Below, one piece after another: positions 5,603 to 45,840 of a DNA stretch of 50,145 nt. Origin of the DNA: an uncultured Candidatus Saccharibacteria bacterium. GTDB taxonomy: Bacteria; Patescibacteriota; Minisyncoccia; Phycocordibacterales; UBA918. The number at the start of each line of letters is the position of its first letter. Within the stretch, counting starts at the first letter, position 1. The stretch covers positions 89,764 through 139,908 of the forward strand of contig CAZSZB010000003.1 of assembly GCA_964611205.1 (NCBI GenBank), in the 5' to 3' direction. Position numbers and translations under genes: made by a program. Under the pieces are notes generated by a model. That model was not told the origin of the DNA, ran no database searches, and saw nothing but the letters and a program-made list of their open reading frames with translations.

Positions 5603-6025
5603 ATGGCAAAAGCTATATTGAAGAAAATTAAAGTTCAGGCTATTGGAGGTAAAGCAACTCCAGCTCCACCTTTGGGACCAGTACTAGGTCAGGCAGGAGT
5701 TAATATCGGTGAATTTGTTAACCAATTCAACGAGCAAACTCGTGAGCGAATGGGTGAGGTAGTACCAACAGTTATTACTGTTTACGATGATCGCTCTTTT
5801 ACATTTGAGTGTAAAACTACACCAGCTGCTCGAATGATTTTGAAAGCTATTGGTAAAGATAAGGGTTCAGCTAAGCCAAGTGTTTCTAAAGCGGGAGAAA
5901 TTACTAAAGCTCAAATTCGCGAGATTTCTGAGGCTAAAATGGCAGACTTAAATGCTACGACTCTAGAACAAGCCGATAGGATTATCGAAGGAACCGCCCG
6001 CAGCATGGGTATAGAAGTAGTCTAA
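5603..6025 (+). CDS. rplK: 50S ribosomal protein L11
   Basis: [31 protein letters not shown]. Confidence 0.97.
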
Positions 6026-6225
6026 ACTACTTCTATAAAGCTTTTGTGATATATTCTGAGCTTAGCGAAAGAATATATCCAAAAGGTGTACAGTCCCTGT
6101 AAGGGATTGAAGTAGTCTAAACTACTTCTATAAAGCTTTTGTGATATATTCTGAGCTTAGCGAAAGAATATATCCAAAAGGTGTACAGTCCCTGTAAGGG
6201 ATCGAAGTGGTTTAAACCACTTCGA
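6014..6225. repeat. Two identical 94-bp hairpin-rich units (period 95) plus a variant third head
   Basis: 6014-6107 = 6109-6202; third head tcgaagtggtttaaaccacttcga (6202-6225) is a perfect palindrome. Confidence 0.92.
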
Positions 6226-6285
6226 TGAAGGTTACCTAAGATTTTAAAGAATGAAGTAGCGACTCTAAATTCTGAGAAAGTGAGC

Positions 6286-29886: not shown

Positions 29887-30087
29887 ATGACAACCGAACA
29901 AACAAAAAAACAAACTCTCAATCATATTGATTACAAAAATATCACTAAATTGAAAGCTCATGTTAATCCACACGCACGAATGATGAATCGTCGTCGTACT
30001 GGTTTTACTGCTAAACAACAGCGTGATTTTGCACGAGCTATTAAGCGGGCTCGCTTTATGGCTCTAATGCCTTTCGTCTCTTACTAG
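29887..30087 (+). CDS. rpsR: 30S ribosomal protein S18 (no Zn-binding Cys)
   Basis: IDYKN, RRRTG..AKQQR..ARAIKRARFMALMPF. Confidence 0.95.
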   Translation: MTTEQTKKQTLNHIDYKNITKLKAHVNPHARMMNRRRTGFTAKQQRDFARAIKRARFMALMPFVSY

Positions 30088-30107
30088 TAAGAGTGCGTTT
30101 TTGTTAA

Positions 30108-32269: not shown

Positions 32270-33376
32270 TTATCCAGCCTCCTCCTTCATTGCTTTTCTG
32301 ATATTTTTGAGGATTTCGTTAGTTAGTTTTTTGTCGTTTTTCAAGGTTGTCCGCGCAGCGTCATAGCCTCTACCTAATTTAACAACAGTAGACTCGTCGC
32401 CGCCTGGGGGAGTGTAAGAGTAGCTGGCTCCCGCCTTTGCGACCATTTTGAACTTTTCACCAAGAGCCAATAATTCTCCTTCACGGCTAATACCTTCACC
32501 ATAAATCAAATCAAACTCAGTCGTTCTAAAAGGAGCGGCAACTTTATTCTTGACCACCTTGACGCGGTGCCGACCACCAACTACTTCGTCACCTTTTTTA
32601 ATCTGAGCAATACGACGGATATCGAGACGAACAGAAGTATAGAATTTTAGAGCTTTACCACCAGGTGTAGTTTCTGGGTTACCAAACATAACCCCAATCT
32701 GCATTCTGATTTGGTTAATGAAGATAATAGAAGTTTTACCCTTACCAACAATAGATGTAAGTTTACGCAAGGCTTGACTCATCAAACGTGCTTGTTTACC
32801 TACGTGGTGGGCTCCCATCTCACCTTCAATCTCGTCTTTAGGAGTCAAAGCGGCCACTGAGTCGACGACAATAATATCGATTTTGCCACTACGTACGAGT
32901 GATTCGACGATTTCTAAGGCTTGTTCACCAGTATCTGGTTGTGAGATAAGTAGTTCGTCTAGTTTAACGCCAATATTTCTAGCATATTCCGGATCCATAG
33001 CGTGTTCCGCATCGATAAAAGCACAGATACCGCCAGCTTTTTGAGCTTCGGCTATGGCGTGTAATGATAGGGTGGTCTTACCAGATGATTCCGGTCCGTA
33101 GATTTCGATAATTCGTCCACGAGGAAAGCCACCGACTCCTAGAGCATCATCAAGCCCAATAGAGCCAGTAGATATTGAATCTACTTCTACGTGTCGGGTT
33201 TCGTCCAAGGTCATGATGGCATCATCGCCGAATTTTGTTTTTATACTACGTAGAGTTTCAGAAATATCTGCTCGGTCATTTTCTTTTTTCTCAGCTGTTA
33301 CAGCCTCTGTTTTCGCAGCAGTTTTTTTAGTAGCAGCTTTGGCAGCTTTCTTCACAGTCGCTTTTTTTGTAGACAT
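32270..33376 (-). CDS. recA: Recombinase RecA
   Basis: [47 protein letters not shown]. Confidence 0.98.
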
Positions 33377-39861: not shown

Positions 39862-39897
39862 AAACAAAAAAGCCCCCTTTGCGGGGCTTTTTTGTTT
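39862..39897. terminator. Terminator after the surface-protein gene
   Basis: aaacaaaaaagcccc...ggggcttttttgttt. Confidence 0.8.
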
Positions 39898-39904
39898 CCT
39901 AATT

Positions 39905-39993
39905 TATCCCTTAGTCTGACTAAGGGATACACACATATACAAAAGCGCAGAGATAAACACCCTTTACCTATCCCTTAGTCTGACTAAGGTATA
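39905..39993. repeat. Two REP-like palindromes upstream of the RAYT gene
   Basis: tatcccttagtctgactaaggg at 39905 and tatcccttagtctgactaaggt at 39969. Confidence 0.85.
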
Positions 39994-40001
39994 ATAATGG
40001 A

Positions 40002-40694
40002 ATGAGAGTTGAGCAGTATACAGTAGGATCATATTTACACATTATTAAAAGAGGAGCCCGCGGTGGTCTAATAGTGCGAGATGAGGCTGATCACTATCGT
40101 TTTTTACGCACGTTGTATTTGTTGAATGATAAGAGTTTTAACCCAGACTGGAAATCTTCCAATTTGGTTGGACTTTTCTCTAGACCTAAGCATTGGGAAG
40201 AACGCAGACCAATCGTAGATATTCTGGCCTACACTCTCATACCCAATCATTTCCATTTGATTCTACGTGAAATAGAAGATGGAGGAGTTAGTCTTTTTAT
40301 GAAACGGCTTGGACAAAGTATGACTAACCATGCAAATGAGAAATATGAGGAAAAAGGGAGTTTGTTTCAAGGTGCCTATCGCTCACGCACAATTGAAAGC
40401 GATGAGTATTTTCGGTACGTAGCAGCGTATGTAATGGTTAAAAACACTTTTGAATTATATCCAGACGGAGGACTAGATGAGGGTGTTAACAATTTTGAAA
40501 AAGTTTGGGATTGGGCAGCTAAATATAAGTTTTCTAGCTTAGGTGATTATACGGAATATCGTGATAGCTCACCTATTCTAACCCCTGGTTTATTAGGGGA
40601 AATATTTTCTAGCTCAGCTGACTTTAAGGTGTTTGCTAAGGATATGATACTGGGTAGGACTCCGCAGCTCGTTTCTCCAAAGGATTTAGAATAA
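40002..40694 (+). mobile_element. REP-associated tyrosine transposase (RAYT/TnpA-REP, HUH Y1 family)
   Basis: HIIKRG, LIPNHFHLIL (HUH), GSLFQGAY, catalytic-Tyr region AAYV, YKFSSLGDY; flanked by four palindromes. Confidence 0.85.
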
Positions 40695-40698
40695 TTTT

Positions 40699-40796
40699 TA
40701 CCTTAGTCTGACTAAGGTATTATTTTAAACTCATAAAATAAACACTATTTTTACATCTATCATACCTAATTATTCCTTAGTCAGACTAAGGGATAC
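40699..40796. repeat. Two REP-like palindromes downstream of the RAYT gene (second inverted)
   Basis: taccttagtctgactaaggta at 40699 and tccttagtcagactaagggatac at 40774. Confidence 0.85.
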
Positions 40797-40865
40797 AAAA
40801 ATGAATAATAAAAAGTTTATTTGTTATACTTAATGTAAGATTCATTAAGATCTGTTTATTTTTAT

Positions 40866-41078: not shown

Positions 41079-43709
41079 ATGTTAAAAAATAAAATTCTGG
41101 GTATTGTTGGTTTTTTATTTATAATTTTATTCTTTTCAACTTCTCCAACTTTCGGTCAGAGTATGCCGGATTTTCCGACAGCCGATGAGTTTGATGTCCA
41201 GTTAATATCATTTGATACAGTGCTAGATACTAGTGACTGTTTACCGGAAGATGATCCTGATTATTGTGGTTATTTTGATCAAGCTAATATTGAAAGGAAG
41301 AATTTTAAGAATGGGGATACAGTTACTCTGAATTTGACTAAACTTGCTGAATTAAGAGTGTCAGGTGCTGAACCTCCTGATCTTGGTTGTGACTACTTTA
41401 GTTATCATGATGGAGGGGAGTTATATAAAATCAGTCCTGAAACTGGTGAAAGAATAGTTGTAATGCGTGATGAGCAAGATTTCTTCGGTGGTATTATTTG
41501 GCCCGGACCTGGTGTTTATGAATTTGATGTTCAATTTCAATGTGCAAATTTGGTCCAGAGACCATCCTGGTATGAAAATATATTAGCTTTGCTCAAAACG
41601 AAAGTGGCTTTTGCTCAATCTTTTCCAGAATTACCGCCAATCGCCACCATCAGATTTACCGTAACTGATGCTAATGAAATATCTGAGCCGGATTGTTGTT
41701 CGTCTGTCTTATTCTTGCCGGGAATTATGAGTAGTCAACTGTACGAAGACGAACAAAAACGCTGGGAACCATCTGGAGAGGGTGATATAGGGCGGCTCTA
41801 TCTAGACGAGAGTGGCAAGACTATTAATAATATTGCTGTCGGTGATGTTATTGAAGAATTTTCTATTACCAGTACAGCCCTGGATTTAAACTTATATAAA
41901 ACTTTCTTAACTGAATTAGCAGACAAAAAAACCGCTGGAATTATTGGTGATTATAATGCTTATGCCTACGATTGGCGGTTATCTTTACCCGATGTGATTG
42001 CCGGTGGGGAGTTGGCAAATACGCTTCGCGAACTTGCTCAGAGTTCGAAAACTGGCAAAGTCACTATTGTAGCTCATAGTAATGGTGGTTTGTTAGCAAA
42101 AGAGTTGGTCAATGAGGTCGGAGGCGAAGCCTCCGACCTCATTGATCAGATAGTTTTTGTTGGTGTCCCACAACTAGGTACACCACAAGCTATCGGTGCT
42201 TTACTTCACGGCTATGATACAGGTCTGCCTTTTAATTGGTTGACTTTTTTGATGTCTCCCGAAAGAGCGAGGGATTTTTCGTATAATTCTCCGATGTCCT
42301 ACAATTTACTTCCACACCAAGATTATTTTGATAATTCTGGGGTAAGCATCAGTACACCGCTGATTACTTTTGACGACGGCGAAGCCACTCAACCATTTAG
42401 AGATTTCTATGGTTCAGAAATAGATAATATCTCTGAATTGCAACGTTTTCTAAAAGGAGAGGAAGGGAGAGTAGCTCCTGCCTATGATGATCTGGACAAC
42501 CCTACCGTGGTTAACGGGAACCTTTTACAAAATAGTAATAATCAAATAACCAATAACATAGATTCTACGTGGCAGGCTCCAGCCGGTGTAAAAATCTACC
42601 AAATTGCCGGAGTAGGCGAACAGACGCTGGCTGGTATCCAGTACAAGGAAATCGAGTTCTGTCAAAAACCATCAAAAATTCTCGGTTCTCTATACTGCAA
42701 AGAAAAGGGACAAACTTTAAGTTATTCTCCAGTTCGGACTTTGGCCGGTGATGAAACAGTTATAGAACCAAGTGCGGTAGCAATACCAGAGTCTCAGGAG
42801 GTGGAAAGGTGGTGGGTTAACTTAGAAAAATATAACGATGATAACCTTAATCGTGGACACAAAAATCTTTTAGAAATAAAAGATATCAGGGATTTCATTT
42901 TTGCTAATGTTATTAGTACCTCAACTGATTATTCTTTTGATTACCTTAGTGATACAGAGCCTGGTCTGAATACACCTGGCTACCTCACTGCTACACTTCA
43001 TTCACCCTTAGCTCTTTCCTATAAAGAAAGCGATGGTACTTTGATTAATGAACAAAATCCGAAAGGTAGGGAAGCTCATTATTCACGATATGGTGAAGTA
43101 CAGCTTTTGGATATATTTGGCGGTAACACTGGATCAATCCAAATGACGGGCGAAGCGACCGGTTCCTTCACCTTAGAATTAGAAGAGCAGAACTCATCAG
43201 GAGCTACTTCTTTCGTTACCTACTCAGCCATCCCGTCTAGCACGAGTACGCTAGCTAGTATCGCAGTGGCAGGTAATTCCGTACAAAACACTGGTCCTTT
43301 AAAGGTAGATTATGAGGGTGATGGTATAGATGACCTGACTTTGGAACCTAAACCAGGTGAAATAATATCTGTTCCGACTGGGTCAGAAGAAGTGATAGAA
43401 TTGAGTTTGTCTGAACTAGTCATTGTTTTGAGGAATTATATAGAAGAAAATATATCCAACAGATATATAAAAATCTATCTTCTAAGAAATTTAAAGATTC
43501 TAGAAAAAATTGACCAGCAGCCGAATAATATCAAAACAAAATACTATTCTTATTTTTTCAATAATTCTGACCTATACAAACAGATTGCTCTAAGGCAGAT
43601 AAAGAATATTGAGGGGATACTTGACCACTATCAAAAATGGAAAATACTTGAAGATACTACAGTCAGTGAAATTAAATCTCAATTAGAGAAAATAAAAAAT
43701 AAACTATGA
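41079..43709 (+). CDS. Large secreted alpha/beta-hydrolase (LCAT/lipase-like)
   Basis: Signal peptide; VLFLPGIMSS oxyanion motif, YDWR, IVAHSNGG nucleophile elbow, GVPQLGTP. Confidence 0.75.
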   Translation: MLKNKILGIVGFLFIILFFSTSPTFGQSMPDFPTADEFDVQLISFDTVLDTSDCLPEDDPDYCGYFDQANIERKNFKNGDTVTLNLTKLAELRVSGAEPPDLGCDYFSYHDGGELYKISPETGERIVVMRDEQDFFGGIIWPGPGVYEFDVQFQCANLVQRPSWYENILALLKTKVAFAQSFPELPPIATIRFTVTDANEISEPDCCSSVLFLPGIMSSQLYEDEQKRWEPSGEGDIGRLYLDESGKTINNIAVGDVIEEFSITSTALDLNLYKTFLTELADKKTAGIIGDYNAYAYDWRLSLPDVIAGGELANTLRELAQSSKTGKVTIVAHSNGGLLAKELVNEVGGEASDLIDQIVFVGVPQLGTPQAIGALLHGYDTGLPFNWLTFLMSPERARDFSYNSPMSYNLLPHQDYFDNSGVSISTPLITFDDGEATQPFRDFYGSEIDNISELQRFLKGEEGRVAPAYDDLDNPTVVNGNLLQNSNNQITNNIDSTWQAPAGVKIYQIAGVGEQTLAGIQYKEIEFCQKPSKILGSLYCKEKGQTLSYSPVRTLAGDETVIEPSAVAIPESQEVERWWVNLEKYNDDNLNRGHKNLLEIKDIRDFIFANVISTSTDYSFDYLSDTEPGLNTPGYLTATLHSPLALSYKESDGTLINEQNPKGREAHYSRYGEVQLLDIFGGNTGSIQMTGEATGSFTLELEEQNSSGATSFVTYSAIPSSTSTLASIAVAGNSVQNTGPLKVDYEGDGIDDLTLEPKPGEIISVPTGSEEVIELSLSELVIVLRNYIEENISNRYIKIYLLRNLKILEKIDQQPNNIKTKYYSYFFNNSDLYKQIALRQIKNIEGILDHYQKWKILEDTTVSEIKSQLEKIKNKL

Positions 43710-44128
43710 AATATATAAATAAACTAACATTTGTAACTATCTCAATTATCTCACTGATTGTTGCCTTACTAATGACAGAAGAATTAGGCTTTTGCAGAAA
43801 TGTCCTAGGTTTAAATACCGGGTGTTTTATCCCTGCAAAAGATAGTGTGGAAATGGTCTTCATATCATTTACAATTCTTACGTTACCAATATCTTTGTTA
43901 ACCCTCCCCCTAAAACCAGCGGTCTTCGACGCTTGGAAGAGGTACGCTATCTGGTCTATACCGGTGATTTTGATATTAGTAGCTTGGATTGAAACAGTTG
44001 GAGAAGGTGGTGGTTTGCCTGGTCAGTTCCATCCGGGCTATCTCTTTTACCCAATTTTCTTTTTTATACATTTCACTATCTCCTTAATCATAATCATCCG
44101 TGTCTGGTTGAAAACAAGGCGAGTTTAA
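43706..44128 (+). CDS. Four-TM hypothetical membrane protein overlapping the hydrolase stop (ATGA)
   Basis: 140 aa, hydrophobic segments, Cys pair in the first loop. Confidence 0.6.
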   Translation: MKYINKLTFVTISIISLIVALLMTEELGFCRNVLGLNTGCFIPAKDSVEMVFISFTILTLPISLLTLPLKPAVFDAWKRYAIWSIPVILILVAWIETVGEGGGLPGQFHPGYLFYPIFFFIHFTISLIIIIRVWLKTRRV

Positions 44129-45112: not shown

Positions 45113-45631
45113 ATGAGTGATGAAAAAGATACAGTGGTAGCAGCAGAAGAAACAACAGTTGAAGAAACTGCAGCTCCAGAAGTAGTAGTAGAAGAAGTGA
45201 AGGAAGAGGCCATTCCAGAAGCAGCAGAAGAAAAAGCTACAGATATAGATGAAACAGTAGAAGTACCAGAACAATTCAAGAAGCTTGTAGAGCAGGTTGA
45301 AACCATGACTGTACTTGAGCTACATGAATTAGTTAAAGTACTTGAAAAGCGATTTGGTGTATCAGCTTCTGCGGTAGCAGTAGCTGGTCCAGCAGCTGCC
45401 GGTGATGCTGGTGATGAACAATCAGAATTTACTGTGGTGTTAGCTGATGCTGGTGCACAGAAAATCGCTGTCATCAAAGCTGTTAAAGAAGTATGTGGTC
45501 TGGGACTTAAAGAGGCTAAGGAGTTAGTTGATGGAGCTCCAGCGGATGTTAAGACTGGATTGAAGAAAGAAGATGCCGAAGCTCTAAAGGCTAAACTAGA
45601 AGAGGCTGGAGCTAAGGTAGAACTTAAATAG
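45113..45631 (+). CDS. rplL: 50S ribosomal protein L7/L12 with about 50-aa acidic N-terminal extension
   Basis: [59 protein letters not shown]. Confidence 0.95.
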
Positions 45632-45792
45632 TTTTAAGTTCTACCAAGCTCCAGGGGCGGAGCCATGTTTTCAATTTTTTTCCTAGAATTGAAAACAGGC
45701 GAGCCGAGGTCGCGAGTACTTAGTGCTCGCAACTAGCGAAGCTAGTGAGAACACTTAGTAACTTGCGACGAAGCTAAGGTAGAACTTAAATA
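45610..45792. repeat. Hairpin module bracketed by 21-bp direct repeats of the rplL 3' end
   Basis: agctaaggtagaacttaaata at 45610 and 45772; inverted copy at 45634-45654; module shared with 28506-28556 and 28381-28436. Confidence 0.85.
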
Positions 45793-45800
45793 ATCCACTA

Positions 45801-45840
45801 TAAACAAAAAAACCAGACAAATGTCTGGTTTTTTTGTTTA
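45801..45840. terminator. Terminator after the rplL module
   Basis: taaacaaaaaaaccagaca-aa-tgtctggtttttttgttta. Confidence 0.75.

Follow-up and report, generated by a model that had tools for sequence, protein, structure and literature searches.

A folded, gene-less cassette behind rplL in a Patescibacteria genome probably belongs to a family that replaces the ends of conserved genes

The rplL gene end, its two copies and the folded core

The window, meaning here the whole 50,145-nucleotide stretch of DNA that was analysed, carries the L7/L12 gene rplL on its forward strand at 45113-45631 (Pfam PF00542 and PF16320, from the open reading frame list), with a TAG stop codon at 45629-45631. The original prediction had described the end of this gene as copied once inverted and once directly around a hairpin module, and both copies are present, on the same strand. 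The working gene end, X1 (CTGGAGCTAAGGTAGAACTTAAATAG, 45606-45631), is delimited by its pairing with an antisense copy, X' (45633-45654), a near-perfect complement that ends in CCAG. X' pairs with 45606-45628 at 22 of 23 positions, with one 1-nt bulge and one mismatch, forming a stem whose 4-nt loop contains the rplL stop codon. The CCAG end extends 2-4 nt to the left of the duplicated segment, and the bulge is located at the Lys codon and is conserved in units that have no terminator of their own. Such terminator-less units in five hosts (L001, L002, L020, L044 and L068) display a common signature, CTTAAATAG directly followed by TTTTAAG, as in the window. The direct copy, X2 (45772-45793, AKVELK followed by TAA), appears to be the displaced former end of rplL: the repeat AGCTAAGGTAGAACTTAAATA at 45610-45630 recurs at 45772-45792 with 21 of 21 positions identical, for which the chance is about 4e-11 for an exact 21-nt repeat inside 200 nt, and the next base changes TAG to TAA, giving a fossil stop codon at 45791-45793. 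X1 and X2 of the window differ only in TAG/TAA and at the edge, a near-identity that points to recent arrival from a close relative. X1 probably arrived together with the cassette.

Between X' and X2 lies a core composed of two parts. Part 1 (45655-45708), defined by its fold and covariation, comprises the P1 stems GGC/GCC and GCC/GGC, which flank a conserved GGA/GA internal loop (45656-45664 with 45698-45705) and enclose hairpin P2 (45666-45697, loop UUUUUUCCUAG). By inspection, the GGA/GA loop measures 3 by 2 nt, a size that does not suit a K-turn. Part 2, P3 (45709-45770), is a long irregular hairpin with conserved G.U pairs that runs from TCGCGAG through an ACTTAGT quasi-palindrome to CTTGCGAC. 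The P2 loop motif, UUCCUAG or YGGGRG, recurs across targets and genomes (45679-45689 in the window), and so does the quasi-palindromic ACUUAGU/ACUUAGU duplex of P3, with its central U.U (45717-45765). These recurrent single-stranded or mismatched motifs look like putative factor-binding sites. In total, the cassette occupies 160 nt between the rplL stop codon and the resident terminator, has a folded core of about 115 nt, and contains no open reading frame. Folding of 45600-45840 yielded -113 kcal/mol, compared with -55 +/- 4 kcal/mol in shuffled sequences (z = -14).

The resident terminator, an intrinsic-terminator-like hairpin at 45802-45839 on the forward strand, now lies 3' of the cassette, and a hairpin holds the homologous position in the empty alleles of three relatives (L007, L064 and L072). 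It is the only terminator-like hairpin of the locus. The X1:X' stem does not qualify as one, being followed by GGGGCGGAG rather than by a U-tract, and none is found between the rplL stop codon and X2, from which co-transcription of the unit with rplL is predicted. Where a terminator does precede X', transcription of the unit would depend on read-through. An exact look-up of the RplL protein returned one other assembly only, with an identical locus, and a metagenome scan for the rplL locus yielded no variant from the same species, the best match being 88% identical. An independent Logan assembly, of run SRR8449813, contains an identical stretch of 341 nt, which may share its sample or reads with the present assembly. 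Two features of the neighbourhood were also recorded. An 876-aa LCAT-like alpha/beta hydrolase and a 140-aa open reading frame with no Pfam match lie directly upstream of rplJ-rplL (41079-44128), and rplK (5603-6025) is located 38 kb away from rplJ-rplL, the usual rplKAJL cluster being split.

A family of structured units at conserved gene ends

To describe the distribution of the core, we built a covariance model, R1, from 14 rplL cores. Among the rplL loci, R1 detected units at 16 of the 50 from genomes and at 16 of the remaining 42, and all 40 matches were co-oriented with the gene (36 behind rplL in the 92 loci, 4 in the rplB tract of the window and in its own cassette). The genome from which the window derives contains about 18 R1 copies, mostly 3' of tRNA and tmRNA genes. 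Of 61 related genomes, 55 gave matches; the median for the genus is 11. In this genome, 14 of the 36 tRNA and tmRNA genes are followed, at +130 to +180, by a 14-33-nt copy of their own 3' end, with the same spacing as at rplL; controls gave none. The cores are closely related across targets: P1-P2 of the rplL unit is 92% identical to the unit at 28505-28557 in the rplB tract, a 205-nt core bounded by 5-nt microhomologies is 94% identical between rplB and tRNA-Lys, and P3 matches units from other families, behind tRNA-Val, Ile, Tyr and Trp, at 81-92% identity. An Rfam search at gathering and permissive thresholds returned no family at threshold, and only sub-threshold hairpin look-alikes up to E = 10. 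The units thus appear to form a widespread and apparently undescribed family of gene-less, highly structured Patescibacteria cassettes, found at the 3' ends of genes that are both conserved and highly expressed (tRNA, tmRNA, rplL, rplK and rplB). Each unit measures 100-200 nt. It begins with X1, a copy of the last 17-50 nt of the gene, followed in some cases by a terminator, then by the antisense X', which forms a stem with X1, and by a core in which two or three hairpins are conserved. X is 9-50 nt long and differs in length between unit lineages, no junction sequence is conserved, and target-matched X' and X2 are found at about 25 different targets.

The pattern is rare among protein genes. 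An exact-match scan of the 664 protein-gene ends of the genome, a genome-wide search that the original prediction had proposed, detected an inverted plus a direct copy only at rplL (direct 21 nt, inverted 13 nt) and rplK (12 and 12 nt), with no direct match of at least 16 nt in internal control segments; rplB was missed by exact matching, as its pattern involves indels. At the rplK end (6008-6230, forward strand), two 95-nt units with another core type, module A ending in ACAG-stem-UGUAA-stem, separate three synonymous copies of GIEVV plus stop (6008-6025, 6103-6120 and 6198-6215), each with its own complement. The order of gene end, inverted copy, module and repeated gene end that had been proposed for rplK is therefore found there, and the two units are 98% identical in tandem. 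The rplB end (28147-28735, forward strand) holds about three stacked units. Its predicted stop-spanning inverted repeat is a real stem at 28161-28205, the antisense segment is bipartite (28186-28205 and 28229-28242), and R1 matches lie at 28243-28437, 28505-28584 and 28647-28702. A fossil end at 28440-28460 reads QRQKIS plus stop with five codons replaced by synonymous ones, AGT by TCT among them. A second, more distant variant at about 28705-28731, (T)ATKIKKR plus stop, lies just before the resident terminator. At rpsR, which had been listed with rplB, the perfect 16-nt palindrome CTCTTACTAGTAAGAG (30078-30093) does span the stop codon, and an ordinary terminator follows; module and direct copy are absent. 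Standing alone in this way, the palindrome is near chance level, and it is possibly a remnant or a product of chance.

Two further arrangements were noticed outside the window, on contig C1 of the same genome. At 32910-33270, an RNase HII-like gene has three copies of its 5' end; both upstream starts are interrupted after GAAGTCGG by a module consisting of an GUGAGAAAG hairpin and ACAG-stem-UGUAA-stem, and the differences between the starts are again of the synonymous type. This locus looks like a mirror-image, 5'-end version of the gene-end cassettes. At 83788-84200, a different repeat, 171 nt long, lies behind tRNA-Asn in about 2.5 tandem units; each begins with the last 4 nt of tRNA-Asn and its 12-nt trailer, and a large serine recombinase gene is located 1.5 kb further on.

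The core bears marks of selection on one strand. In an alignment fitted to the model, 96% of the helix cells are paired and 12 of 14 pairs display double changes. Two measures do not depend on the model: G.U outnumbers A.C by 30 to 3, and folding each strand separately favours the sense strand over its complement in 20 of 22 cases, by an average of 7.8 kcal/mol. In the genome of the window, units follow the direction of the gene in every case, and are divided 9 with and 9 against with respect to GC skew. Sense-strand selection together with this gene-following polarity points to transcribed RNA. Use of the hairpin as DNA on the lagging-strand template is disfavoured, since polarity tracks the gene and not GC skew.

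Empty sites, displaced ends and how the units may have spread

We compared the rplL loci of 50 related genomes and 42 further distinct metagenome or GTDB loci, all from Patescibacteria/Paceibacteria relatives. Many are empty sites, where the gene end abuts a terminator and a conserved downstream block that aligns with the sequence after X2, and the occupied loci contain one to three units. Three empty sites from congeneric genomes and metagenome relatives (L007, L064 and L072) share the flanks of the window locus, where X2 adjoins the same resident terminator and downstream block. At rplK, L105 has an insert and both L110 and L114 are empty sites. The empty alleles that the original prediction had called for are thus present between species at both genes, with the gene end next to the same terminator, and, as in an attL/attR-type layout, direct repeats of the gene end flank the insert and leave the gene intact. 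The rplL cassette is an insertion. Stacking is illustrated by L040, which equals L037 with one extra gene-proximal unit; the 50-nt fossil end of L040 corresponds to the working end of L037 (49/50). Between these two loci the last 52 nt of the gene are 25% diverged and the preceding 120 nt 7.5%, the highest ratio of 19 comparable pairs, an argument for a breakpoint that is weakened by the generally about twofold divergence of the last 51 nt of rplL. Across rplL of 37 congeners (loci L001-L040), these last 51 nt are about twice as diverged in nucleotide sequence as the preceding 120 nt (median ratio 2.1, 19 pairs), and the peptide is highly conserved. This raised divergence may be a trace of repeated end replacement.

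Empty sites, stacked units and the presence of the same core at many gene ends agree with the original proposal that the gene terminus is used by some mechanism other than ordinary terminator evolution. The opposite reading, in which a long 3' UTR or terminator evolved locally by slippage and tandem duplication and nothing moved, could invoke the 98% identical tandem duplication at rplK and the slippage-prone nature of hairpin-rich DNA. It is scarcely credible in view of the empty sites with conserved flanks in relatives, the recurrence of one core at unrelated genes and in other families, the lack of a U-tract after the X1:X' hairpin, and displaced ends that are foreign alleles.

The nature of the displaced ends was assessed from codon positions, X2 being chosen by nucleotide identity alone (at least 14/18). 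In 24 rplL pairs, X1 and X2 differ at codon positions 1/2/3 in 10/3/56 cases, with 51 synonymous and 8 non-synonymous codons, where 22% synonymous would be expected at random (p ~2e-16). Six rplK pairs, including the three GIEVV copies of the window, gave 1/2/15, with 15 codons synonymous and 2 not. Pooled, 71 of 87 differences fall at third positions, and 66 codons are synonymous versus 10 non-synonymous. This third-position bias indicates that the downstream copies are former working ends of another allele and were not made at insertion, so that each copy was once the working end of the gene, the two in different lineages. In agreement, X2 is closer than X1 to the ends of empty relatives (L028 vs L025; L105 vs L110 and L114). 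The synonymous differences, the empty relatives and the L040/L037 pair all assign the gene-proximal repeat to the element and the distal one to the resident gene, as at attL and attR. X' fits the upstream X in 21 of 23 units, displaced older units included, and fits the downstream copy better in one (L057). This match to the upstream end, together with the stacking, defines the unit as new gene end, optional terminator, X' and core, the newest unit lying nearest the gene.

From these data, we consider it probable that the 160 nt behind rplL are the newest, and here the only, unit of a family of gene-end-replacing cassettes, spread by exchange with imported DNA and with a core kept as RNA. What the compared loci show is that two gene ends that already existed were exchanged, at or close to the left-hand edge of the repeat, and that units became stacked in consequence. 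Of the mechanisms offered by the original prediction, att-like recombination is favoured, since displaced ends differ almost only synonymously; HUH strand transfer finds no support in the distribution of the RAYT-like Y1 gene (rho 0.12 with cassette number) or in the gene-following polarity, and neither template switching nor target duplication during insertion would produce such differences. Att-like or homologous exchange is thus supported. The incoming gene-end copy takes over as the working end and leaves the resident end, X2, stranded beside the old terminator; each new entry pushes older units further downstream, which gives a layout like the attL/attR of an island that targets 3' ends. 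The exchange partner would be a pre-existing allele of another lineage. The simplest route would be recombination of imported DNA, with the conserved gene as left arm and, as right arm, either the portable stranded gene-end copy or an edge set by the X:X' stem, an enzyme encoded by the element playing no part. The core would be retained because it works as RNA, as a sense-read 3' extension of the gene transcript, as in the E. coli tRNA-linked repeats. Recombination of imported DNA is favoured because no enzyme is tied to the cassettes. Plain recombination does not account for the role of X', nor for how X' and X2 matched to each of the ~25 targets first came about.

The main rival to recombination of imported DNA is a dedicated, nucleic-acid-guided integration, which we hold to be rather unlikely. 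Here a folded single strand would be excised or copied, the X:X' stem would display a replica of the target with X' as a programmable guide, a host enzyme acting in trans would join it at the base of the stem, and a unit would be retargeted through X and X'. Such a mechanism would account for the constant position of X', always 2-4 nt past the left edge of the duplicated segment, which places the junction at the base of the stem. It would also account for the covariation of X1 and X' between hosts (L028 vs L029 and L039; E/N/T codon variants in L001, L002, L020 and L044), for the Lys-codon bulge kept by terminator-less units, and for the same cores at many targets within the genome and across families, such as the 205 nt of rplB and tRNA-Lys (94%) and P3 (92%). 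Against it, gene conversion from one cassette to another is a second possible source of shared cores, as the 5-nt microhomologies bounding the 205 nt allow, X varies from 9 to 50 nt with no conserved junction sequence, and no candidate enzyme emerged: there is no reverse transcriptase, a single Xer-like recombinase, and serine recombinases without matching repeats. A stronger version of this idea, in which the cassettes are a protein-gene-free, retargetable mobile element, X' being a programmable guide, the stem base fixing the joining point, and a folded RNA or single strand of 100-200 nt homing to conserved gene ends with host enzymes only, seems distinctly unlikely. Were it true, a by-product would be the repeated replacement of the last codons of core genes, and if X' proves to be a guide, the system would be a new, very small, programmable means of insertion. 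A copy made at insertion itself, by a staggered transposase-like cut, HUH single-strand transfer or replication template switching that duplicates the local gene end in inverted and direct form, is, in our judgement, very unlikely. In its favour, the window's X1 and X2 are identical over 21 nt, serial template switches can yield an arrangement of X, inverted X, insert and X, the window encodes a RAYT-like Y1 transposase (40002-40694), and some such event must once have made each target-specific unit. However, a neutral local copy decays at all codon positions, giving a synonymous share of about 36% or less instead of the 86% observed; X2 and X1 differ almost only synonymously. Moreover, the window's X' is an imperfect complement of X1 whose bulge recurs in units of other hosts, the number of cassettes bears no relation to the presence of RAYT, which 16 of 42 cassette-rich genomes lack, and polarity is independent of the replication strand. 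We conclude that copying at insertion is disfavoured as the mode of spread; it may account for the first origin of each target-specific unit.

The search for an enzyme covered the whole genome. The reverse transcriptase domain PF00078, expected of a retroelement such as a group II intron, DGR or retron, is absent from this 99.6% complete, 716-kb genome. No integrase lies in the cassette, whose 160 nt hold no open reading frame, or can be assigned to it, the serine and tyrosine recombinases of the genome having no link with it. These recombinases comprise one Xer-like tyrosine enzyme and two large and one partial serine enzymes; the large serine recombinases lie beside tRNA-Asn and tRNA-Ser, and no direct or inverted copies of those tRNA ends were detected within 8-10 kb. 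The 230-aa open reading frame at 40002-40694, 5 kb from the rplL cassette, scores 27 bits against the IS200-like Y1 transposase family, a value above the cut-off. REP-like hairpins, TA(T/C)CCTTAGTC(T/A)GACTAAGG, flank it in two pairs (39888-40812), a RAYT-type arrangement. The REP hairpin CCTTAGTCTGACTAAGG has 10 copies in the genome, none of them in cassettes, and its sequence differs from the cassette family. RAYT-like homologues occur in 35 of 61 related genomes, and their presence correlates with cassette number at rho 0.12 over the 61 genomes. The gene and its REP hairpins are themselves real, and their unrelated distribution gives no support to a RAYT or HUH link to the cassettes.

Relation to known systems

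Patescibacteria genomes are tiny and streamlined, yet retain dozens of such folded units, none with a gene of its own, at the ends of the genes they conserve best. By swapping a protein-gene end for a foreign, synonymous copy, the units would open a hidden channel of recombination on core translation genes, and the codon position of differences between working and stranded ends offers a simple test that distinguishes allele exchange from copying at insertion.

Several known elements share part of this design. Integrative islands and prophages that enter the 3' ends of tRNA, tmRNA or protein genes carry a replacement end and displace the old one, and are known as integrase-less remnants and in tandem accretions. 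The cassettes resemble them in the replaced end, the flanking direct repeats, the empty sites and the position of the newest insert next to the gene, but differ in being 100-200 nt long without gene or integrase, in their variable repeat length, in the inverted copy of the site, and in serving many targets with one core family. Integron attC sites and Xer-exploiting elements such as the CTX phage use a folded single strand, an imperfect hairpin with bulges that imitates a double-stranded site. A folded strand with conserved bulges, strand-specific structure and stacked cassettes are common to both, whereas the present hairpin imitates the local gene end rather than a fixed attI or dif, and its orientation follows transcription. 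Features of an integron were likewise not observed: no IntI was found, the single tyrosine recombinase being Xer-like, the arrays lie at gene ends, and they show no replication-strand bias (9 with, 9 against).

REP/BIME elements with their RAYT, and IS200/IS605, are likewise mosaic, hairpin-rich, extragenic and located at gene 3' ends, and the REP stem motif CTTAGT resembles the ACTTAGT of P3. To our knowledge, REPs contain no copy of the neighbouring gene's end. Neither a hairpin shared with REP/BIME nor co-occurrence with RAYT was observed. A MITE would have terminal repeats of its own; the corresponding segments here (X' and X2) differ at each locus and match the local gene, and the duplication spans 9-50 nt. 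Mobile introns use internal guides, through EBS/IBS pairing in group II and P1 in group I. Like them, the cassettes start just after the target segment and contain an internal stretch complementary to the target; unlike them, they have no ribozyme core and no reverse transcriptase, and the target is duplicated. Intron-like splicing to X2, which could have explained the preserved reading frame of X2, is ruled out, since orthologous fossil ends decay (a deletion in L029, a scrambled sequence in L037) and splicing to them is thus not maintained.

The tRNA-linked repeats of E. coli have gone unexplained since 1978. These TLRs (tyrT/tyrV, and rrA/rrB/rrF behind 5S rRNA) repeat at their 3' end the last 18-19 bp of the upstream gene; they are non-coding, lie between a first and a second terminator, are transcribed by read-through and are sometimes in tandem, and their origin and function are largely unknown (PMC8144298). 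They are the nearest described elements, sharing with the cassettes a layout in which the 3' end of the unit repeats the end of the upstream gene. This repeat is present at rplL as the 21-nt copy at 45772-45792, and at 14 of the 36 tRNA and tmRNA genes. The rplL unit follows a protein gene instead of a tRNA or rRNA operon, other members do follow tRNA or tmRNA genes, and no homology in sequence or structure was detected, no Rfam family reaching threshold. The genome encodes no CsrA, the protein partner of RrA, RrB and RrF. Beyond the TLR plan, the cassettes have a modular core that is conserved, an antisense version of the gene end, protein-coding targets, and displaced copies that represent other alleles. 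The family thus looks like a far richer counterpart of the TLRs, whose origin may become testable through it.
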